Numbered from the stretch's first letter, positions 6,098 through 22,377 are shown. The stretch is DNA of 64,000 bases from Candidatus Methylomirabilota bacterium (GCA_035524675.1 DATKOK010000147.1:351-64350), one strand, 5' to 3'. Made by a program: numbers and translations. The notes: generated from the sequence alone by a model not told the origin.

Positions 6098-7135
6098 ATG
6101 GAGTTGGGATTCAACCTTGCCCCCTTAGCGGTTAAACAACGTCTTACGCTGAACGATCTTTGGGGGAGAGTTCTTGCCGTTGACGCGAACAACATGCTTT
6201 ACCAGTTCTTGGCTCTGATTAGAATGCGTGACGGTAAGCCATTTACCGACGCTTCAGGGCATGTAACGTCACATTTGATAGGCCTCATCTTCAGGACAAC
6301 TCGATTACTCGCTGAACACAATATTCGACCGGTCTTCGTGTTCGATGGAAAACCACCAGCGCAGAAAATGTCGACTCTCAAAGAGCGGAATTTGACTCGA
6401 GCCAAGGCCCGAAGAGAATATGAACTCGCCGTCGGACGCGGTGACTATGCTGCTGCATGGTCAAAGGCCGTGCGCATGGACTCCTTGACTCAGGAGATGA
6501 CTGGAGATGCTAAGAGGGTACTATCGCTACTTGGCATACCCGTTGTGCAGGCGCCTCAAGAGGGTGAGGCGCAAGCGGCACACATGGCTCGACGTGAGGA
6601 TGTTTGGGCCGCCAACAGTCGCGATTATGATGCAGTACTATTCGGTGCGCCTCGATTAATCCGCTACCTGACGATAACGGGTCAAGAGTATTTGCCGAGT
6701 AGCGGAAATTCGAGGCCACTTATACCCGAACTAATAGACCTTCGGAAGATGCTAGCTGTATTGCAGATTACGCAGGAGCAACTTGTTGACTTGGCTGTAC
6801 TGGTTGGAACCGATTTCAATGCGGGTGTTCGAGGAGTCGGACCTAAGACTGCGTTGAAGTTGATTCAGAAACACAAAGCACTGGAGAACTTGCCGACAGG
6901 AATCAAGGGAAAATTACCGCAAAATGTTCAGGAAATTCGCACATTGTTTTTTCATCCACAGGTAACGAACGATTATGATCTGCGCTATTCAGCGGTTGAT
7001 GAAAAGGGGCTCGTTCAATTCCTTTGCGTTGAGCGAGGATTTGCAGTTGATACGGTCAACATTGTCATTGAGAGAATGCGCATCTTCAATGCTAGAGAGG
7101 CTTCGAACTTGAGCTCTTGGCTTAGTCCTAGATGA
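6098..7135 (+). CDS. fen: Flap endonuclease 1 (FEN-1)
   Basis: VLAVDANNMLYQFL, HLIGLIFRTTRLL and PVFVFDGKPP are XPG-N/I motifs. Start moved to ATG 6098 (MELGFNL...) to match FEN-1 N-termini. Confidence 0.9.
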   Translation: MELGFNLAPLAVKQRLTLNDLWGRVLAVDANNMLYQFLALIRMRDGKPFTDASGHVTSHLIGLIFRTTRLLAEHNIRPVFVFDGKPPAQKMSTLKERNLTRAKARREYELAVGRGDYAAAWSKAVRMDSLTQEMTGDAKRVLSLLGIPVVQAPQEGEAQAAHMARREDVWAANSRDYDAVLFGAPRLIRYLTITGQEYLPSSGNSRPLIPELIDLRKMLAVLQITQEQLVDLAVLVGTDFNAGVRGVGPKTALKLIQKHKALENLPTGIKGKLPQNVQEIRTLFFHPQVTNDYDLRYSAVDEKGLVQFLCVERGFAVDTVNIVIERMRIFNAREASNLSSWLSPR

Positions 7136-7139
7136 GATT

Positions 7140-8753
7140 ATGTCCCAGACTCATTTCTCCGAGTTCGCGAATGCATGTCGACGGATTGAAGCAACTAGTA
7201 AGAGGAAGGAGAAAGTTGAAGTCCTGGCAAACTTCTTGCGCTCCCTGCATCCTCATGAAGTGATTCCGGCTGTAACCTTCTTCACAGGACATGCTTTTCC
7301 AGGAGCGGACGAACGAGTGCTCGATATTGGTGGCCAGACTATCTGGAAGATGGATCGAAAGAGCAACCAATCAACGTTAGTTAGCCGACCAGCGACTCTA
7401 TTAGATGTTTACGAAACCTTCGATAGGGTCGCCAACGCCACTGGTTCAGGCTCCCGCCAGAGGAAGGAGACTCTTGTGGAAACACTCTTGGGACGTCTTG
7501 GAGCTTCCGACACCGAATACTTGCTGAGAATAATTTTTGGCGAGATGCGCATTGGTGCGGTAGAGGGTGTAATGCTCGATGCTATCGCGGCTGCTAGCGG
7601 CATTCAGCTAGATGATGTTAGGCGAGCGTACATGTTGCTGGGTGATCTCGGGCGTGTCGCAAAGTTATCGATGACTGAGGGCCATGCGGGGGTCCATGCG
7701 GTCCGTGTAGAAATATTCGTGCCGATAAGGCCAATGCTGGCTGAGATGGCGCAGGACGTTGAGGAAGTTTTCAGGGAGCACGGAGGAATCACAGCTCTCG
7801 AATACAAGTATGATGGGGCAAGAGTTCAACTCCATAGAAAAGGGGGAACCGTCAGAATTTTCAGTCGCAGACTCACAGACGTGACTGATAGCCTGCCGGA
7901 CGTTGTTAGGGTAGCTAAGGAAGAGATTGATGCTCGGGCGAGAGAGTTCCTCGTGGAAGGCGAAGTCGTGGCCGTGGGAGAAGGCGGAAAGCCATATCCG
8001 TTCCAGGACTTGATGAGGCGTTTCAAGCGCGTGCATGAGGTTAAAACGATGACGACGCAGATACCGCTTAGACTTCATTTGTTCGACATCGTGCATCTGG
8101 ACGGTAGGATGCTCATAGATGCGCCTAATGAAGAACGGTGGGAGATTCTCCAGAATCTCGTCCGGCCAGACTTACTAGCCACTCGAACCGTGAGTTCGAA
8201 AATAGGTGATGCTAAGGAGTTGTTGCAACAAGCGATTCTCGCGGGACATGAGGGAATAATGGCCAAGGATTTGAAGAGCAGTTACACGCCTGGCGTGCGC
8301 GGGAAGAAATGGTTCAAGATTAAACCCGTCGAGACGCTTGATGTCGTGATCGTAGCTGCAGACTGGGGATCTGGAAGGAGGGAGGGATGGTTGAGCAATT
8401 ACCATCTTTCAGTGCGAGACGCGCAAACAGGGGACTATTTGCTGGTGGGGAAGACGTTCAAGGGCCTGACTGATGAAGAGTTTTCGATGATCACTGAAAA
8501 GCTATTGTCATTAAGAATTCGGTCCACCGAGTACACTGTCTATGTTAAGCCTTCGATTGTTGTTGAAGTGGCGTTCAACGAGATTCAACGAAGTCCACAC
8601 TATCGGTCAAGGCTCGCTCTTCGTTTCGCTCGTATTACTCGTTTTCGAGAGGACAAACGCCCGGAGGATGCTGATACACTGAGTAAACTGAACGCTCTTT
8701 ACGAAAATCAGTTTAGGTTCAAGGCAAAGGCAGACTTCGAGGCTAACAGATGA
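7140..8753 (+). CDS. lig: ATP-dependent DNA ligase
   Basis: Adenylation motif I EYKYDGARVQLH, plus EGIMAKD and KWFKIKP motifs. 537 aa. Confidence 0.95.
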   Translation: MSQTHFSEFANACRRIEATSKRKEKVEVLANFLRSLHPHEVIPAVTFFTGHAFPGADERVLDIGGQTIWKMDRKSNQSTLVSRPATLLDVYETFDRVANATGSGSRQRKETLVETLLGRLGASDTEYLLRIIFGEMRIGAVEGVMLDAIAAASGIQLDDVRRAYMLLGDLGRVAKLSMTEGHAGVHAVRVEIFVPIRPMLAEMAQDVEEVFREHGGITALEYKYDGARVQLHRKGGTVRIFSRRLTDVTDSLPDVVRVAKEEIDARAREFLVEGEVVAVGEGGKPYPFQDLMRRFKRVHEVKTMTTQIPLRLHLFDIVHLDGRMLIDAPNEERWEILQNLVRPDLLATRTVSSKIGDAKELLQQAILAGHEGIMAKDLKSSYTPGVRGKKWFKIKPVETLDVVIVAADWGSGRREGWLSNYHLSVRDAQTGDYLLVGKTFKGLTDEEFSMITEKLLSLRIRSTEYTVYVKPSIVVEVAFNEIQRSPHYRSRLALRFARITRFREDKRPEDADTLSKLNALYENQFRFKAKADFEANR

Positions 8754-9451
8754 AGGTGGCTTCGTTATTCAGCGGAGGTAAGGACAGTGCTTTTGCCACT
8801 TGGTGGGCTCAAATGCAAGGTTGGGACGTAGCAGAATTAGTCACAGTTCTTCCTGAATCGACCGAGTCATGGATGTTTCATTATCCTGCAACAGAATGGA
8901 CCCGGCTGCAGGCCGATGCTATGGAGATTCCGCTGACCGTGATCAGAACCAAGGGGACTAAGGAGAAGGAGTTGGATGATCTTGCTGAGGGTCTTCGAGC
9001 AATAACAAAGAAGGCTGGATTAGAAGGCATTGTTTCTGGAGCTGTGGCAAGCGAATATCAGCGAACTCGATTGGATAATGTGTCCGAGGAGCTCGGTTTG
9101 AGAAGTTTTGCTCCATTATGGCATAAGAATCAGCAGCAGCTTGTGGAGGAACAGATCGAGTCGGGATTTGAGATCATGATGACTGCGTGTAATGCTCTGG
9201 GACTGAGTAAGGAATGGTTAGGGCGAAGGCTTGATATAACTAATTTTCCGGAACTCCTCCGGCTTAGTAAGAAGTACGGTTTCAGTATAGCATTCGAAGG
9301 TGGCGAGGCTGAAACATTCGTCCTGAATGGCCCGATGTTCAATGGCAAGATTAGAGTGGACCAGTCGATTCCGCATTGGAAGAACGAGTCAGGTTACTTG
9401 GAACTAGGACGATTGAGTCTAATACGCGAGGCAGTCACCTTACCAGCCTAG
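8750..9451 (+). CDS. PP-loop ATP pyrophosphatase, diphthine-ammonia ligase (Dph6/MJ0570)-like
   Basis: N-terminal SLFSGGKDS PP-loop, SGAVASEYQRTR and PLW motifs of the Diphthami_syn_2 family. 4-nt overlap with lig. Confidence 0.75.
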   Translation: MKVASLFSGGKDSAFATWWAQMQGWDVAELVTVLPESTESWMFHYPATEWTRLQADAMEIPLTVIRTKGTKEKELDDLAEGLRAITKKAGLEGIVSGAVASEYQRTRLDNVSEELGLRSFAPLWHKNQQQLVEEQIESGFEIMMTACNALGLSKEWLGRRLDITNFPELLRLSKKYGFSIAFEGGEAETFVLNGPMFNGKIRVDQSIPHWKNESGYLELGRLSLIREAVTLPA

Positions 9452-16383: not shown

Positions 16384-16590
16384 TCTAGACGCCTCGGGAC
16401 TTGAGAATCTGCGTAGCCTTAAGAAGGCAGCTAATTAAGAGTTGTTGAGTTCTGAAGAGGGGCGTCGATCTGGAAACGCAACTTGCCAAGTTTAGCTGAC
16501 CTAGCTTCCAGTCGTAGGGTGGTTCAAGTATCCGATTGGACCTCGTACCTTAATCTACTACCTAAGCAACATCATTGGAGAGGCTTCGGA

Positions 16591-17694
16591 ATGCCTGAGT
16601 TCGTGAAGAAGGGCATCGAGTTTGATGATGAAGCGCGTGTCGGAGCTGGTTACCTAACCTACGCAAATGCAAAAGTGCCGCTTCCAAACAAGTTTGCGAC
16701 TACAACAGAACTCAACGCGACTCGACTCGTCGGATTGAAGCAGGATTTTCCTACAGAGATCATCGTTGCGGGTAAACTGATCTACCCTGAAACCCTAAAG
16801 CGCATTTTGAAAGAGGAAGATGCTCTGAAGGAGTTTGCTCGTCGCCTTGCTCGCGAGACCTCTAGCCACGAAGATGCGTTGAGCATGCTATTCTTTATCC
16901 TGAAGGGAGAGGCAGCGGTAGCGGAGTCAAGTGACCTTAAGACCGTTCTTGATCTCCAGTACTTTGCAGATTTGGATATTATCACTGTGCAGCAGAGCCC
17001 TGGCCTGCCGATGGATGATTTCTTATCTCACATTAGGTTCGCTGAGAGGTGGCTTGATAATCGAGGTATAGACAAGCCTCTGATGCCTGTGTTAGCTCCA
17101 TCGGATGACGATTTTGAGAAGACATTGAAGGCAGTTGTGAAACGGAAACCCAAGTTGCTAGGGTTTGACATGAGAGGCGGGTTCTACTATCAAGCGCTAC
17201 GATCCTTGGAAGTTGTCAAGGATAAAGATCCGGAGATCTGGCTGCACGTATTTCAGGTCCCTCCAAAGGTCAGGTTCGCCAGAAGCCTGTTAAGATGTTC
17301 GGAGGGAATGGTATTGCCATTCTTCGGTGTAGATAGCTACAACAGGTGGGTTGTGCCCCCGCCCCCTGTGCCTTTAACGAAAGACAAGATCAACATGTTC
17401 GATTCCACGAATTGGGGAGTGTTCAAGCGCAAGGAATGGGACAAGGAATATGGTGCAAAGCTGAGTTGCACTTGTCCGATGTGTAACAAGCATCAGCTAC
17501 CAACCTTCTTTTCTGGTGAAGTGCTAACAGTATTGGGAAGGAGCAAAGTTCATGACCATTATGCTCAACGGGAGCAGCTCTATGAGCTCGCAAAACGCGT
17601 AAAGTCAGGTAAGGTTAAGGGCTTCATCTCCAGAAAGCGGTATCCGAACGCATTCCTTAAGCAAGTATCAGATTCCGAACCGTCTAAAGCTTGA
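16591..17694 (+). CDS. Divergent TGT-fold (tRNA-guanine transglycosylase / DpdA-like) protein, function unknown
   Basis: C-terminal CTCPMCNKH...(about 25 aa)...VHDH fits the TGT zinc motif CxCxxC...H. FFGVDSYNR sits where TGT has G(V/I)DMFDC. Start taken as ATG 16591 after ggagagg. Confidence 0.45.
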   Translation: MPEFVKKGIEFDDEARVGAGYLTYANAKVPLPNKFATTTELNATRLVGLKQDFPTEIIVAGKLIYPETLKRILKEEDALKEFARRLARETSSHEDALSMLFFILKGEAAVAESSDLKTVLDLQYFADLDIITVQQSPGLPMDDFLSHIRFAERWLDNRGIDKPLMPVLAPSDDDFEKTLKAVVKRKPKLLGFDMRGGFYYQALRSLEVVKDKDPEIWLHVFQVPPKVRFARSLLRCSEGMVLPFFGVDSYNRWVVPPPPVPLTKDKINMFDSTNWGVFKRKEWDKEYGAKLSCTCPMCNKHQLPTFFSGEVLTVLGRSKVHDHYAQREQLYELAKRVKSGKVKGFISRKRYPNAFLKQVSDSEPSKA

Positions 17695-18271
17695 CTTCCG
17701 CCATTCGCGTCATTAGCGTTTTCAAATCAATTTCAGATTGGGTTCGCCATCCGAGAGATATTACGCCAGCGTCATCTTCTTCGAGGTAGCCCGTCCTCAG
17801 GAAAATGTCCACTAGGGTTATCGATTTCCATCTACCGAATTTGTTGGCTAGGAGTTTCTCGAGATCTTCTCGAGGAGCTTTTCCCTGCTTTGAGAGAAGG
17901 AACGCGACCACAGCAGCTAGTGCAGCAAGGTTGTCGATCCGCCATCCGATCATCTTTGCCTCTTTTAGGCCGAGTGTTCCTTTGAGTGTTATGTAATACC
18001 TACTCTCGTCAGTCGGTACTTCGTTCTGCGTAGCGTATGCAGGAGTGTGCTCCTTGACCTTTTTTATTTCAAGGTCAAGTTCGGAGAGGAGTTGATTGAG
18101 CTGCTCAAGGACTTGTTCATAGTTCTTACCTATTTTCTCCTTGAACTCCCATTCCTTCGCCCCAGGCATCTTTCCTCTGCGAAAGAGCAGTAGATGCATT
18201 GCTCGCTTCAGCTTGTCAGAGTAGAATGTTTGAGTTTGGGGTTGTGTTTGTGTTGTCTCTTTGCTTTCCAC
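17684..18271 (-). CDS. Tandem winged-helix (KITE) protein, Nse3/MAGE- or ScpB-like
   Basis: 195 aa. AMHLLLFRRGKMPGAKEWEFKEKIG and LAALAAVVAFLLSKQGKAPREDLEKLL...FLRTGYLEE follow the two-WH MAGE/KITE pattern. Last gene of the SMC-like operon. Confidence 0.55.
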   Translation of the reverse strand: MESKETTQTQPQTQTFYSDKLKRAMHLLLFRRGKMPGAKEWEFKEKIGKNYEQVLEQLNQLLSELDLEIKKVKEHTPAYATQNEVPTDESRYYITLKGTLGLKEAKMIGWRIDNLAALAAVVAFLLSKQGKAPREDLEKLLANKFGRWKSITLVDIFLRTGYLEEDDAGVISLGWRTQSEIDLKTLMTRMAEVKL

Positions 18272-18274
18272 TGC

Positions 18275-19060
18275 TCAACTACTCCTCGGGACGGGGATCG
18301 GGAAGGAAATGCTGTTCGCCGTTGCTTTCCCGGTTGGCTCGTCGACCGGGATAAGTGATAGTTTGCCGTCATCCGTCTTTAGTTTAGCGAAGCCATAGGT
18401 GATGAGGAAGCTGATGAGGTAAGCTCTGTGCACAGTCTCTTGATATGTAGGCCTGCGAACAAACGTCCAATAATCTGTAACCTTCGAGCTCTCACAGGCG
18501 ATGCGAAGTTCTTCATGCAGGCGGTTGATTTGCGTGTTGAATTCTTCTCCGTGTACGCCCAGTCCTGTGAGCATTTCATTGTTAATTGGTGAAGGTGGCT
18601 TTCCTTCATTGGATTGTTTCTTCTTCCATCTCTCAGCAATTGGCAGGAGAGTGTCCCAGTAGTTGAGTGCATTGGTTACGGTTTCTTCTGTTAACTGTTC
18701 TAATTCTGCTAGGGGGTGCCAGCTCTGAAGGAGGACTTCGACAAGCCGCTTTTCACTCATTCGTTCCAGTTTTCGAACTATGAATTCGGGGTCAGCATAG
18801 AGGGCGCTAGATTGGAACTTCAGTTGTGTATTCTGGAGCCGTACAACTTCGGATAGGCGGTTAAGCGTGTGCGCGTCCATGCAATGGTCTTGAAATGTTT
18901 CCCATAGAGGAAAGAATTGTCGAAGAGTCTCTACGCCCAGTTTCACGTCAAGGAAGAACGGGTTGAATTTCCTTTCAGCTATGGCGTCACAAGTGTCGAC
19001 GAGTTCCTTTAACTCGCGTCTCCCTGCGGCTAGGGTGGGTTTCTTTGGGCTTTCACTCAC
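18275..19060 (-). CDS. Kleisin-like protein (ScpA/Nse4-like)
   Basis: 261 aa. N-terminal KFNPFFLDV resembles ScpA F-x-GP-LDLL. C-terminal VHRAYLISFLITYGFAKLKTDDGKLSLIP resembles the kleisin C-terminal winged helix (FLAxLEL...). 8-nt overlap with the SMC-like gene. Confidence 0.5.
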   Translation of the reverse strand: MSESPKKPTLAAGRRELKELVDTCDAIAERKFNPFFLDVKLGVETLRQFFPLWETFQDHCMDAHTLNRLSEVVRLQNTQLKFQSSALYADPEFIVRKLERMSEKRLVEVLLQSWHPLAELEQLTEETVTNALNYWDTLLPIAERWKKKQSNEGKPPSPINNEMLTGLGVHGEEFNTQINRLHEELRIACESSKVTDYWTFVRRPTYQETVHRAYLISFLITYGFAKLKTDDGKLSLIPVDEPTGKATANSISFPIPVPRSS

Positions 19061-20978
19061 CTGGAGTCAACTCGCTTACTACTGAGGCGCCTTCGACGTT
19101 TTGGACCACTATTACGTGGCTGTTGTCTGAGACGTTGACCTGTCCAGGTGTAATTGCGACATATTGGCCTTCCTTCATTGCCTTCGAGCTTGAGATGATC
19201 AGTTGGGTTACGAGTTCCCTATTCTTTGGATCCATGTGCACGTCAAACTCATCTATGGCTCGAAACGGGGAGGTTATGTGTTGCTGGAGGGCGAGGAGGA
19301 ACCCCATCATGGCGATGCTTCTTTCTCCGCCGCTCTGTGTGAATGCGTCCAGAGGAGTTGGTTTATTCCCTTTGAAACCAACGAGGATTTCGATGCCGCA
19401 CTTTTCTATATCTCGCGAGGATATTAGCCTTATAGCGCCTGTTGCGCCGACGCTAGTTAGAATCTCGTTATACCTGCCTGTTGATCCTTCAAGGAAACTG
19501 GTTAGGACGTCGCGCCAACGTGCGAGACGTTTGTCGAGTTCAGATAGCACTTCTTGGCGGCTAGTGGCGACCTGGTCAGCCTTCTGGCGCAGTTCCTCGT
19601 ATACCTTGGCGTAGGAAGAGTACACTTTCTCCACATCTTCACTGATGCTTGAAAGTGGGCGTATCTGCTCCTCTACAGCCCCCACTTCCAGCATTACGTC
19701 AACGATCTTCCTGAGGACTTCGGGGGCTGGTCCTGATTGTTCGGCCTGCGCAAGCATGGGGTCTACCTCTTCTCGTGCGAGCCTAACTTGCGCCTGCAGG
19801 TCCGCTACTTCTTCGGAAAGAAGTTTCTTCTTGAATCCTGAGACTTCATATTCGACGTTTGTGTCGATGAGGCGGGTAAGTGCGTCTTCCAGGCGACCGC
19901 TCGCATCTCCCATTTTGTCGCTGAGGGAACCCATTTTCTCTTTGGCTTTTGCCAGATTCTTCTGTGATTGCTCGACAGTCGCTGTCCACGACTGGCGTAG
20001 TTTGTCGAGACTCTCAGACTGCGTGGTACTTGCGTTTGCTGGGTCCGGAGGTAGAAAGTCTCGGAGTAGGTTCGTTGCCCATTCTAAATTGACTTCATTG
20101 GTCGTGGCTTCCTTTACAACTTCAATCCTCTTTCCTTCCAGTTCGATTCTTCCCAGGTTGAGCTCGTCGAACTTGGCCTGGCGTTTTTTCTTCATTTCTG
20201 CGAGTTCTTGTATCTTGCTTTCGATTGATTGTAGTGTACGCGATTTTGAATCGATACGATCCTGTAAATGTGACAGGGCTTCCTTCCGCTTCTGAATTCG
20301 AGCCCAGAGTAACTCGCGTTTCAATGTGTCTAGCTTCGTTTCCAGTTGTCTCTTCTGCAGAAACCTATCGTATTCCCGTTTCCAGTAATCATGTGTCTCC
20401 TTTGTTGATTCGAGTACTTGAGCCAAGGATTGCTCTTCGCTTGCAACGCTTTCTAATCGACGCTTTGCATCTAGAACATCTTCTCTGTAGGATTGGAACC
20501 CAACTGCTTCTTCGAGCATCTTGAGTTTATCTTGAGCACTGACAGCCGCAAATCTTCCCACCATGAACTGATGCATGATGACCAGGATATTGTCAGGGTT
20601 CAGCCCCAGAGTGCCGAAGACATCCGTTACGGAAGATTTTGGAACTGATTTGTTTTGTAGAAGATAGTAATACGTTCCGTTATGCTTCAGTACTCGCGTG
20701 AGCGCAACCGTGTCGGTGTGAAAGTGAGTGAATGGACGTTTCTCACCGGAATTGTCTAGGATCAATGTTATCCTCGCTTCTTCTGTTCCCCACTTTATGA
20801 GATCGCTTAACCTCTTGGATCTCTCAGTGTATGCTTGACCTAACACAACTGATATGGCCAACAGAATGGATGATTTTCCTGCGCCGTTGGGTCCGCAAAT
20901 GAGGTTCAGCCCAGGCTCCAGGGGAATGTATGCGTTCTCGTATGACATGAAATTTGTGAGAACTACACCCTTTATCAT
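19053..20978 (-). CDS. Short (641 aa) hingeless SMC-family ATPase with Smc5/Smc6-type head motifs
   Basis: N-terminus VVLTNFMSYENAYIPLEPGLNLICGPNGAGKSSILLAISVVLG (Walker A), about 350 aa of coiled coil, and C-terminus QSGGERSIAMMGFLLALQQHITSPFRAIDEFDVHMDPKNRE...QYVAITP (signature, Walker B, D-loop). Confidence 0.8.
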   Translation of the reverse strand: MIKGVVLTNFMSYENAYIPLEPGLNLICGPNGAGKSSILLAISVVLGQAYTERSKRLSDLIKWGTEEARITLILDNSGEKRPFTHFHTDTVALTRVLKHNGTYYYLLQNKSVPKSSVTDVFGTLGLNPDNILVIMHQFMVGRFAAVSAQDKLKMLEEAVGFQSYREDVLDAKRRLESVASEEQSLAQVLESTKETHDYWKREYDRFLQKRQLETKLDTLKRELLWARIQKRKEALSHLQDRIDSKSRTLQSIESKIQELAEMKKKRQAKFDELNLGRIELEGKRIEVVKEATTNEVNLEWATNLLRDFLPPDPANASTTQSESLDKLRQSWTATVEQSQKNLAKAKEKMGSLSDKMGDASGRLEDALTRLIDTNVEYEVSGFKKKLLSEEVADLQAQVRLAREEVDPMLAQAEQSGPAPEVLRKIVDVMLEVGAVEEQIRPLSSISEDVEKVYSSYAKVYEELRQKADQVATSRQEVLSELDKRLARWRDVLTSFLEGSTGRYNEILTSVGATGAIRLISSRDIEKCGIEILVGFKGNKPTPLDAFTQSGGERSIAMMGFLLALQQHITSPFRAIDEFDVHMDPKNRELVTQLIISSSKAMKEGQYVAITPGQVNVSDNSHVIVVQNVEGASVVSELTPGE

Positions 20979-21124
20979 TGAACCCGAGCTGCCGTTTTGG
21001 ACCTAACAATTTCTCGATGCGTAAAAATGTTCAGGGACCGCCGAGGTCTGCACCATCTAACGGCCCATTTTGATTCTGTATATGCATGGTCTATGAACGC
21101 GTAGACATAATCATCATTGTGTAA

Positions 21125-21133
21125 GTTTATATA
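21125..21133 (+). promoter_or_regulatory. TATA box (TTTATATAA) for gar1-tfb
   Basis: Strong TATA element about 48 nt upstream of the gar1 TTG start, with gggagtgaag between them. Confidence 0.4.
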
Positions 21134-21176
21134 AGGATCAGAGCTCACGCATGCTTGCGGGAGTGAAGAACAGAGT

Positions 21177-21407
21177 TTGCAAAGGCTCGGCAAAATCCTC
21201 CACTTATCGAAAAGCCGAAGCCTCATTTTGAGATGTGAGACATCCCGCTTCGTGAAAATGGGAAGTACGGCCTGTGATAGTAAACTCAAGGAAATTGGAA
21301 GAATCCATGACATCTTTGGTCCAGTATCTTCACCATACCTGTCAGTTAGACCAACAGTCTCTTCACCCGCCAGATACGTAGGTCGAGTCGCGTACTCTCT
21401 CGATTAA
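21177..21407 (+). CDS. gar1: H/ACA RNP component Gar1
   Basis: (M)QRLGKILHLSKSRSLILR...EIGRIHDIFGPVSSPYLSVRP matches archaeal Gar1 (MKRLGKVLH...DVFGPV..PY). TTG start. Usual position upstream of tfb. Confidence 0.85.
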   Translation: MQRLGKILHLSKSRSLILRCETSRFVKMGSTACDSKLKEIGRIHDIFGPVSSPYLSVRPTVSSPARYVGRVAYSLD

Positions 21408-21420
21408 GGCAGATGAAATA

Positions 21421-22377
21421 GTGTCCGAAGATTTAGACTCTGAAGCAAGCGAAGCACTTCAATCGCAAAGCAAGATTCGCGTCTGCCCCGAGTGCGGCGG
21501 ACCCAAGCTAATGAGGGACTACGAGGCGGCGGAAATTGTATGCATGGCATGCGGATTCGTGATCGATGAGAAACTGGCCGACGCTAGACCAGAATGGCGA
21601 GCGTTCGATGATGAGCAGAAATCCAAGCGGACACGCGTTGGAGCGCCCTTGACTTATACTATACACGACAAAGGTCTATCGACGGTAATAGATTGGCGTG
21701 ATCGGCGTGCTTTAGGAAAACGAGCCACTGCAACTCAGAGACTAGATCTGTATAAGCTTAGAAAGTGGCAGAGTCGCGTCAGAGTTTCAGATGCGACTGA
21801 AAGAAACCTAGCAGTCGCCTTGGCTGAACTAAGTAAGTTGGCCTCCGCCCTCAACCTGCCGAAGAACATCCTGGAAACCGCGTCGGTGATTTACCGTCGC
21901 GCGATAAAGAAGCGGCTGATTCGCGGAAGATCTATTCATAATGTTACGGCAGCCGCGATTTACATGAGCTGTCGACAGTGCGGTGTTCCAAGAACATTGG
22001 ATGAGATCGCTGGATCTTCGAGCCTCAACAAGAAGGATATCGGCAGGAGCTACCGCTTTATGGTCAGGGAGTTAGAGGCGTTCGTCCCTCCTTCCACTAG
22101 CCGGAACTACGCTGCACGTTTTAGCAATAAATTGGTGATCTCGGGTAAGGCTGAAGCTATTGCAATAAAGATCTTAGAGATTGCAAAGCAGATGAAATTG
22201 ACAAGCGGAAGAGGTCCAACAGGCATCGCCGCGGCAGCAACCTACATCGCTACCGTCCTGACGAATGAGAGGAAGACTCAGAGAGAGATTGCAGAGATTG
22301 CGAACGTGACTGAAGTTACCATCAGAAATAGGTACAAAGAGCTTCTGGAACGACTCTTCATCGAAGTACCCGTCTAG
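21421..22377 (+). CDS. tfb: Transcription initiation factor IIB (TFB)
   Basis: Zn ribbon CPECGG...CMACG followed by two cyclin-fold repeats. GTG start, TAG stop. Confidence 0.95.
   Translation: MSEDLDSEASEALQSQSKIRVCPECGGPKLMRDYEAAEIVCMACGFVIDEKLADARPEWRAFDDEQKSKRTRVGAPLTYTIHDKGLSTVIDWRDRRALGKRATATQRLDLYKLRKWQSRVRVSDATERNLAVALAELSKLASALNLPKNILETASVIYRRAIKKRLIRGRSIHNVTAAAIYMSCRQCGVPRTLDEIAGSSSLNKKDIGRSYRFMVRELEAFVPPSTSRNYAARFSNKLVISGKAEAIAIKILEIAKQMKLTSGRGPTGIAAAATYIATVLTNERKTQREIAEIANVTEVTIRNRYKELLERLFIEVPV

Follow-up and report, generated by a model that had tools for sequence, protein, structure and literature searches.

SMC5/6-related SMC proteins are known from archaea, Bathyarchaeota included (Yoshinaga & Inagaki 2021, PMC8665677), and operons combining genes for an SMC5/6-related SMC, an Nse4-related kleisin and an Nse1/3-like kite have been described in TACK and Asgard archaea (van Hooff et al., bioRxiv 10.1101/2024.01.07.573240). 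A table in the latter work lists adjacent Nse4-related and Nse1/3-related genes in the Bathyarchaeia order 40CM-2-53-6 and a ScpB-like kite in related Bathyarchaeia, and an example operon is given from another Bathyarchaeota MAG (bioRxiv 10.1101/2024.01.07.573240). These published descriptions are phylogenomic, and the searchable text and supplements of the two sources (PMC8665677; bioRxiv 10.1101/2024.01.07.573240) contain no mention of short arms or of a missing hinge. The operon class is therefore already published and the locus discussed here is not presented as a discovery; the hingeless, short-arm architecture of its SMC protein has had little attention.

The three-gene operon analysed here, from a Bathyarchaeia genome, encodes an archaeal complex related to Smc5/6, the DNA-maintenance complex of eukaryotes. 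The locus shares its three families, gene order and lineages with the published archaeal SMC5/6-related group, of which it is a member. The operon and its junctions are composed as follows:

19053..20978, minus strand: predicted SMC5/6-related SMC ATPase, 641 aa, ATG start, stop codon included, from the ORF call
18275..19060, minus strand: putative Nse4-related kleisin, 261 aa, GTG start, from the ORF call and an Nse4 profile match
17684..18271, minus strand: predicted Nse1/3-like kite, 195 aa, GTG start, modelled with two winged-helix units
19053..19060, minus strand: overlap of SMC stop and kleisin start, GTGAGTGA, 8 nt, read base by base
18272..18274, minus strand: 3-nt spacer separating kleisin stop and kite GTG, read base by base
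20979..21176, no strand assigned: divergent intergenic region from the SMC start to gar1, with AT-rich boxes TTATATAAA and CATTTTTAC

At the first junction, the kleisin start GTG and the SMC stop TGA lie within the shared 8 nt GTGAGTGA; at the second, GCA stands between the kleisin TGA and the kite GTG, with a GAGGAG motif about 10 nt upstream of the latter. The original prediction of three minus-strand genes that overlap by 8 nt at the first junction and lie 3 nt apart at the second proved exact in its coordinates, and the genes of the SMC, the kleisin and the kite are tightly packed and probably translationally coupled. The operon promoter presumably lies within 20979..21176, between the SMC start and gar1. 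A 112-aa ORF at 20975..21313 on the minus strand, which overlaps the SMC start, was dropped as a fourth gene, since it lies antisense to gar1 and follows gar1 in its pattern of conservation.

The 641-aa protein matches Pfam SMC_N across residues 1-627 (6.6e-36), and its ATPase motifs are intact:

20868..20894, minus strand: Walker A GPNGAGKSS, residues 29-37, with G29-S36 invariant in 33 family members
19317..19337, minus strand: ABC signature QSGGERS, residues 548-554, with S549, G550, G551 and E552 invariant in the family alignment
19230..19259, minus strand: Walker B and D-loop AIDEFDVHMD, residues 574-583, with D576-H581 and D583 invariant in the family alignment

In a motif comparison with Smc5- and Smc6-type proteins, DEFDV.MD is Smc6-like, while the following MDP.NRE is Smc5-like. 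All motifs that had been quoted for this protein, i.e., Walker A, QSGGERS, SPFRAIDEFDVHMDPKNRE and the apex DFLPPDPANASTTQSES, were found in the sequence. The best PDB match of the single sequence in phmmer is yeast Smc5 (1.2e-35), followed by Pfu Smc (7e-29) and, at a distance, Rad50 (near 1e-8); the family profile scores Smc5 at 227 bits, Smc6 at 215, archaeal Smc heads at 172 and Rad50 at 43. In a search of 1.84 billion representatives, the top representative matches beyond the archaeal family comprised 27 with a Smc5-/Smc6-type Walker B/D-loop and 2 of the canonical SMC type, the types being assigned by our own motif classification. A neighbour-joining tree of the heads agrees with an Smc5/6 affinity but, being rough and rooted on two canonical SMCs only, is no test of it. 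Since Smc5 and Smc6 outrank both canonical SMC and Rad50 in the PDB phmmer search as well as with the family profile, the proposal of Smc5/6-like heads is upheld, and these comparisons support a head whose affinity with Smc5/Smc6 appears to exceed that with canonical SMC or Rad50.

For the second product, the ortholog profile matched only Nse4/EID3 in the PDB (1.3e-6 and 1.3e-5), and 30 of 36 orthologs match Pfam Nse4_C (best 1.8e-5), compared with 0 of 36 for Pfam ScpA. In the single protein, the corresponding region is the following:

18335..18454, minus strand: Nse4_C-like winged-helix core, kleisin residues 203-242; Pfam Nse4_C E=0.0042, below the gathering threshold for the single sequence

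The ortholog profile likewise matches the C-terminal region of Nse4, which backs this placement. The suspected kleisin-like nature of the 261-aa protein is thereby borne out, and profile evidence supports its assignment as a putative Nse4-related kleisin.

The third product was modelled by AF2 as two winged-helix units (approximately residues 12-96 and 102-173; pLDDT 66). Both this model and that of the SMC protein were limited by an input restricted to homologs of 75% identity or more. Foldseek placed MAGE-G1/NSE1 first (4e-5), followed by Nse1-Nse3-Nse4 complexes and, in fifth place, JetB, with a TM of about 0.3; ScpB was missing from the top 50 fold matches. By sequence, the kite ortholog profile gave zero matches in the PDB, and Pfam SMC_Nse1 was matched weakly and below threshold in 9 of 36 orthologs. 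With moderate confidence, the fold model suggests that the 195-aa protein is an Nse1/3-like kite predating the duplication of Nse1 and Nse3. Of the earlier Nse3/MAGE-like assignment, the tandem winged helices and the Nse1/MAGE-G1 fold matches stand, while the label “Nse1/3-like” fits better.

Taken against eukaryotic Smc5/6, the locus shares the QSGGERS signature and the Smc6- and Smc5-like motifs of the head, the Nse4-type C-terminal winged helix of the kleisin and the Nse1/Nse3-type tandem winged-helix kite. It differs in having a single SMC gene, where eukaryotes have a Smc5/Smc6 heterodimer joined by hinges, and one 195-aa kite devoid of a RING-like region in place of Nse1 (RING) plus Nse3; furthermore, its SMC arms are hingeless and less than half as long. 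No genes for Nse2, Nse5 or Nse6 adjoin the operon.

The arms of the SMC protein, which AF2 modelled as a monomer, are divided as follows:

20058..20495, minus strand: N-terminal arm helix, residues 162-307, continuous in the AF2 model
20022..20057, minus strand: apex turn FLPPDPANASTT, residues 308-319, an AF2 loop joining the two long helices, with neither hinge nor CxxC
19452..20021, minus strand: C-terminal arm helices, residues 320-509, modelled as H320-415, H425-442 and H448-509

The model thus predicts a single helical hairpin of about 145 residues—roughly 20 nm—closed by a 12-residue loop. Block means of pLDDT in the N-terminal arm are 82-93 at residues 171-300, 65 at 161-170 and 77 at 301-310; the heads, at a pLDDT below 50, are poorly modelled because the underlying alignment is shallow. 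The C-terminal arm carries conserved breaks at residues 416-424 and 443-447, with G416 and R423 conserved in 90% or more of the family, and the apex region differs in sequence and length across the family alignment. Pfam SMC_hinge gave no match in the 641-aa protein and, as C28 and C527 are its sole cysteines, it contains no CxxC. Together with the plain hairpin of the model, this agrees with the original reading of an apex that would have neither a globular hinge nor a CxxC hook. The SMC protein is short in all 80 loci of the genome scan, sampled members measuring 566-678 aa. We know of no characterised SMC-kleisin complex with arms of about 145 residues that end in a simple loop instead of a hinge or zinc hook.

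Close relatives present other arm tips. A hinge is kept in the Asgard Freyarchaeum protein P0330 as well as in P0284 and P0324, and a mid-arm, Rad50-like CxxC is combined with long arms in P0263, P0264 and P0272; the loci of the long-armed CxxC relatives (L082-L085 and L088) have no adjacent kleisin or kite. With a hinge (Asgard) or else a mid-arm CxxC present in its close relatives, the short hingeless form looks derived.

A survey of related genomes for the triplet, as proposed at the outset, showed that the SMC-kleisin-kite order recurs, with the kleisin at 76 and the kite at 71 of 80 genome loci, where contig ends account for all but two of the missing partners, and at 66 and 58, respectively, of 80 metagenome loci. 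It is kept in Bathyarchaeia, Nitrososphaeria, Hecatellales, Methanomethylicia, Hadesarchaea and others. Given this recurrence at the genome loci, the arrangement is far beyond chance. Two loci have DNA inserted between the SMC and kleisin genes: in L057, an opposite-strand ORF that by eye is KaiC/RecA-like plus a membrane protein, and in L080, an ORF resembling by eye an HflX-type GTPase. These were rejected as extra subunits, their ORF content being unrelated to the complex. The neighbours of the operon encode Gar1, TFB and a conserved 403-aa protein for which database searches detected no family. The gar1-tfb pair lies upstream of the SMC operon in 46-47 of 80 loci, and flanking by gar1-tfb and the conserved gene is seen in nearly half to over half of them. 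The locus appears to be chromosomal and vertically inherited across classes, in a stable housekeeping context and not in a defence island.

An alternative reading is that the genes form an SMC-type defence against plasmids or phages, comparable to Wadjet (JetABC), Lamassu or MADS. PADLOC does match the SMC heads (mad3 103 bits, LmuB 50, JetC 37) and JetB is, as mentioned, the fifth-best fold match of the kite; moreover, Lamassu LmuB is, like RecN, a short-armed SMC-like protein of comparable length whose arms end without a canonical hinge. However, LmuB and RecN show only weak head similarity to the present SMC and have other partners, with no Nse-type kleisin-kite pair, and the PADLOC matches are confined to generic ABC-ATPase head regions. 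That to mad3 covers two head halves only and was discarded as evidence of a MADS gene, being judged generic because no other MADS gene lies nearby. NCBIfam, PHROGs and PADLOC returned zero matches for either kleisin or kite, no nuclease or effector gene of the JetD or LmuA type adjoins the operon, and the housekeeping surroundings and apparent vertical inheritance are unlike those of defence islands. We consider a defence system very improbable; for the role in plasmid or viral DNA restriction that had been suggested, there is nothing in support in a locus with housekeeping context and no adjacent effector.

Slightly less probable still is an ordinary condensin-like archaeal Smc-ScpA-ScpB complex that is merely divergent in sequence. 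The logic of an SMC homodimer, a kleisin and a kite dimer, encoded in an operon, is indeed common to both, and SMC_prok_A is the best NCBIfam match of the heads, though its 192 bits fall far under the cutoff of 729. In contrast to Smc-ScpAB, with its globular hinge, arms of about 50 nm, ScpA and ScpB, none of these components was detected at the locus: Pfam and the AF2 model offer no hinge, the kleisin profile leads to Nse4 only, and ScpB does not appear among the kite fold matches cited above. Canonical SMC was outranked by Smc5 and Smc6 in every search. No canonical SMC paralog was found by tblastn within the window, i.e., the whole 64-kb stretch of DNA that was analysed, a negative that carries little weight for a stretch of this size. 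In the searchable part of the literature, the two operon types are kept apart within the same genomes.

A Rad50-, RecN- or ASRP(ClsN/Sph)-type repair or compartment ATPase without a true kleisin, followed by unrelated winged-helix proteins, is hardly credible: it would accord with the RecN-like length, with an arm tip that, as in the SMC-superfamily ATPases Rad50 and ASRP/ClsN, is not a hinge domain, and with weak NCBIfam matches to Rad50, RecN and ASRP models, but Rad50 reaches 35-43 bits against 127-227 for Smc5 in single-sequence and family-profile searches of the PDB, the NCBIfam scores stay at 46.8 bits for ASRP (cutoff 300) and at most 62 for Rad50 models (cutoffs of at least 700), the CxxC zinc-hook dimerisation of Rad50 and ASRP/ClsN, which work without kleisin or kite, has no counterpart in an SMC lacking CxxC, no Mre11 gene is a neighbour, and the downstream genes are co-conserved with the SMC gene and include the Nse4 profile match.

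We hold it very likely that the locus is an operon for an archaeal SMC5/6-related complex of one SMC, one Nse4-type kleisin and one Nse1/3-type kite. Its mode of action can be sketched on the pattern of Smc5/6-Nse1/3/4 and of further SMC complexes of the kite type. Since there is one SMC gene, a homodimer is to be expected, in which two SMC copies would engage their heads around two ATP molecules. One kleisin would bridge them by placing its N-terminal helices at one SMC's neck and its C-terminal winged helix at the other's cap, and a kite dimer would be seated on the middle of the kleisin. Kleisin, kites and engaged heads may then form an ATP-dependent clamp around double-stranded DNA that would serve chromosome maintenance or repair. 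As the arms are short and end in a simple loop, the two SMCs would probably be held together mainly by heads, kleisin and kites or by an unrecognised arm-tip contact.

The locus offers a clean and complete archaeal counterpart of Smc5/6 and bears on the origin of eukaryotic SMC complexes, a point already made in the literature. Current SMC models—segment capture and hinge gating—presuppose two arms that are joined at a hinge. A conserved SMC-kleisin-kite machine, encoded on the chromosome and with loop-tipped arms of about 20 nm, would be a minimal and tractable system for finding out which activities need a hinge, and its subunits of 641, 261 and 195 aa are small and lend themselves well to reconstitution and cryo-EM. 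Tentatively, and with somewhat less than even confidence, we propose that the widespread SMC5/6-related SMC of TACK archaea is naturally hinge-less and half-length while still working with a kleisin and a kite, its relatives forming a natural series. If this is true, at least one SMC machine with kleisin and kite would not need hinge-mediated dimerisation or a closed inter-arm compartment, and three distinct ways of ending the arm would have been explored within the archaeal lineage nearest to Smc5/6.

Genes for the SMC, the kleisin and the kite are consecutive on the minus strand, at exactly the coordinates of the original prediction, and are listed here together with the genes flanking the operon.

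16483..17694, plus strand: 403-aa gene, family unassigned, converging on the kite gene with an 11-nt overlap at the kite 3' end
17684..18271, minus strand: kite, 195 aa, GTG start
18275..19060, minus strand: kleisin, 261 aa, GTG start
19053..20978, minus strand: SMC ATPase, 641 aa, ATG start
21177..21407, plus strand: Gar1 (Pfam), divergent, upstream of the operon
21421..22377, plus strand: TFB (Pfam), divergent, upstream of the operon

Both junctions, read directly from the sequence, are as had been described: the SMC TGA and the kleisin GTG overlap by 8 nt (GTGAGTGA), while GCA separates the kleisin TGA from the kite GTG, leaving a 3-nt gap. A GAGGAG motif is located about 10 nt upstream of this GTG. 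All motifs quoted in the original prediction are present in the sequence. A 112-aa ORF (20975..21313, minus strand), whose overlap with the SMC start codon is 4 nt, was rejected as a fourth operon gene; it is probably spurious, since it lies antisense to gar1 and its apparent conservation tracks that of gar1.

The neighbourhood of the operon is stable, chromosomal and of housekeeping character, with neither a mobile element nor a defence island. Based on Pfam, a class I aminoacyl-tRNA synthetase is encoded beyond Gar1 and TFB, and a prefoldin subunit (Prefoldin_2) as well as a DUF3194 protein and a DHH phosphoesterase are encoded further downstream. The 403-aa ORF contains a CTCPMC...H cysteine/histidine motif and has no match in Pfam, NCBIfam, PADLOC, PHROGs or the PDB.

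Conservation of the triplet, which the original prediction had left to be checked, was found in a scan that took one genome from each GTDB species, in which 239 relatives were detected and the best 80 loci kept, spanning Bathyarchaeia, Nitrososphaeria, Hecatellales, Geothermarchaeales, Methanomethylicia, Culexmicrobium and Hadesarchaea. Among these 80 loci, the kleisin gene lies directly downstream of the SMC gene in 76 and the kite gene follows it in 71; seven loci with missing partners stop at a contig edge, and in L066 and L077 alone the downstream sequence is long enough and partners still go undetected. In a scan of metagenome contigs, kleisin was present in 66/80 loci and kite in 58/80. 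The gar1-tfb pair adjoins the operon in 46-47 and the 403-aa gene in 39 of the best 80 genome loci; close homologs come from Bathyarchaeia MAGs.

Several loci deviate individually. In L057 (positions 6133-8883, Hecatellales MAG) and L080 (6817-8232, Methanomethylicia MAG), 1.4-2.8 kb separate the SMC and kleisin genes, comprising an opposite-strand ORF that by eye resembles KaiC/RecA, together with a membrane protein, in the former and a same-strand ORF resembling an HflX-type GTPase by eye in the latter; rather than additional subunits, these appear to be unrelated insertions. In-frame stop codons inside the tblastn-defined SMC regions of L062 (2038-3741) and L071 (2529-4439) may represent frameshifts, pseudogenes or assembly errors. 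Five contigs carry the archaeal operon under bacterial or haloarchaeal MAG titles (L007, L009, L034, L038 and L059; Acidoferrum, Acidiferrales, "bacterium", Dormiibacterota and Halobacteriales) and are probably mis-binned; archaeal gar1-tfb neighbours also occur in the first four, while L059 has only the 403-aa neighbour, located upstream in a different arrangement.

A role as a defence system of the Wadjet, Lamassu or MADS type was weighed, as PADLOC matches mad3 of MADS to both head halves of the SMC (19053..20978, minus strand; 5.6e-30). Because no other MADS component is nearby, this match is judged to reflect generic SMC-head similarity, the only kind of match PADLOC gives for the SMC. 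Kleisin and kite are without matches in PADLOC and PHROGs, no effector gene lies next to the operon, and the locus shows vertical conservation within a neighbourhood of housekeeping type. Defence is, thus, an unlikely function, and nothing supports the suggested restriction of plasmid or viral DNA.

The heads of the SMC point to the SMC5/6 type. Pfam SMC_N covers residues 1-627 (6.6e-36), and against the PDB the single sequence matches yeast Smc5 best (1.2e-35), followed by a Pyrococcus Smc head construct (7e-29), human Smc5, and Smc6 (1.8e-25), with Rad50 near 1e-8. With a profile of 33 orthologs, the lead of Smc5 (227 bits) and Smc6 (215) over Pfu Smc heads (172), Smc2 (159) and Rad50 (43) is larger. 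When 1.84 billion cluster representatives were searched exhaustively, the archaeal family ranked first; the long matches that follow it were sorted by Walker B/D-loop motif, and by this classification of our own 22 are Smc5-type (DEINQGMDP.NER), five Smc6-type (DEFD[IV][FY]MD) and only two canonical SMC (DE[IV]DA.LD). The Smc5/Smc6-like character first noticed by eye is, hence, upheld, and the archaeal motif, SPFRAIDEFDVHMDPKNRE, unites features of both eukaryotic paralogs. Since Walker A, the Q-loop region, signature, Walker B, D-loop and H-loop histidine show no or almost no variation across the 33-ortholog alignment, the window SMC is expected to be an active ATPase.

The partner proteins are consistent with this assignment to different degrees. 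Scanned singly, the kleisin matches Pfam Nse4_C only, and under threshold (E=0.0042, residues 203-242). A profile of the window protein and its orthologs from 35 related loci has yeast Nse4 (1.3e-6) and human EID3/NSE4B (1.3e-5) as its sole significant PDB matches, both over the C-terminal winged-helix region. Nse4_C is matched by 30 of the 36 sequences scanned singly (best 1.8e-5), and ScpA or Rad21 models by none, in line with the predicted kleisin-like nature. The N-terminal half contains a conserved NPF..DV motif and has no detectable relatives; it may bind the SMC neck.

For the kite, a profile of the orthologs found nothing in the PDB, and Pfam SMC_Nse1 was matched under threshold in nine and MAGE in two of 36 orthologs. 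The AF2 model (mean pLDDT 66) contains two successive winged-helix units:

Unit 1: H12-29, H40-46, H51-63, E67-74, E89-96
Unit 2: H102-129, H134-145, H147-160, E163-165, E170-173

In a Foldseek search of the PDB, the top match of this model is a chain of the MAGE-G1/NSE1 complex (4e-5, probability 1.00), followed by chains of three Nse1-Nse3-Nse4 or Smc5/6 entries and by JetB of JetABC, with ScpB and MukE absent from the top 50; TM-scores stay at about 0.3, a low value that two domains modelled in arbitrary mutual orientation would be expected to give. The protein is without a RING domain. Of the proposed Nse3/MAGE-like two-winged-helix protein, the fold is, therefore, retained, while its type is better given as Nse1/3, with moderate support.

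The SMC is hingeless in the sense of lacking a canonical hinge domain, as judged from the model, the family alignment and the uniformly short size. No Pfam SMC_hinge match was obtained even at E up to 1, and C28 and C527 are the only cysteines, so that a CxxC is absent as well, both as originally predicted. In the AF2 model, for which input homologs were limited to at least 75% identity, the heads are consequently poor, whereas the arms are confident, with block-mean pLDDT of 82-94 everywhere but the tip. Helix 162-307, a 12-residue loop (308-319, FLPPDPANASTT) and helix 320-415, continued with short breaks at 416-424 and 443-447 by helix reaching 509, are predicted to form one antiparallel hairpin, each strand of which is about 145 residues long (some 20 nm by our own estimate), with no globular domain at its tip. 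In the family alignment, conservation stays below 60% in every column within residues ~230-375, and differences in length cluster at 307-333; SMCs of this size are encoded at all 80 genome loci kept (566-678 aa in 42 sampled members). The SMC was modelled as a monomer, and tip-to-tip contact between arms is possible.

Three findings exclude a divergent Smc-ScpAB complex: kleisin matches confined to Nse4, the lack of a hinge, and the order in which the SMC matches rank. Likewise excluded is a Rad50, RecN or ASRP-type protein, given the scores (NCBIfam ASRP 47 bits at a cutoff of 300; arcadin-4 and Rad50 models far under theirs), the missing hook and the co-conserved Nse4-like partner.

Arm tips differ among relatives of this SMC5/6-type protein. 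The nearest 50%-identity clusters include a few long proteins; P0263, P0264 and P0272 (1016-1047 aa, Bathyarchaeota MAGs) and the partial P0313 (Hermodarchaeota) share its SMC5/6-type head motifs, have no Pfam hinge, and carry a mid-arm CxxC motif, C(D/N)KCGS..L...QW, near residue 530, at the position of the Rad50/ClsN zinc hook. At five loci encoding such long forms (L082:2348-5467, L083:2144-5170, L084:1506-4589, L085:4876-7983 and L088:4971-8093), tblastn detected no kleisin or kite within 5 kb; in L088, the adjacent ORFs resemble ribosomal-protein genes by eye. P0330 (WXG40904.1, Candidatus Freyarchaeum deiterrae, 835 aa) has a Pfam SMC_hinge (4.6e-11), and P0284 and P0324 have hinge-like middles not called by Pfam; all three possess SMC5/6-type Walker B motifs. 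In a rough neighbour-joining tree of head regions only (two outgroup sequences, 100 bootstraps), indicative at best, short and CxxC forms cluster in 98/100 bootstraps, the CxxC forms lying within that cluster; P0330, P0284 and P0324 take a position basal to the short forms, P0284 and P0324 as sisters of this group, and eukaryotic Smc5 and Smc6 types cluster in 75/100. This branching suggests that the short clade lost its hinge at its base, the hinge-less form being derived.

Overall, the original observation is confirmed and its interpretation supported. The class is already known: an archaeal SMC clade from Crenarchaeota, Verstraetearchaeota, Thaumarchaeota and Bathyarchaeota lies at the base of SMC5+6 (Yoshinaga and Inagaki, PMC8665677), and van Hooff et al. 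(bioRxiv 10.1101/2024.01.07.573240, version of May 2025) report Nse4 branching with TACK and Asgard kleisins, an Nse1/3-like type among archaeal kites, and two operons in many archaea, a condensin/cohesin-related one next to an SMC5/6-related one in the same genome. In their Supplementary Table 3, Bathyarchaeia of order 40CM-2-53-6 are entered with neighbouring genes of the Nse4-related and Nse1/3-related kinds and with a ScpB-like kite, and an example operon is given for a Bathyarchaeota MAG. The finding as stated is, therefore, not new. In a word search of both publications, including the supplements of the latter, neither the lack of a hinge nor the shortness of the arms was found to be mentioned for these archaeal SMCs, and a further literature search turned up no additional paper on this topic. 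The residual interest resides in the hinge-less architecture with half-length arms and in how varied the arm tips of close relatives are.
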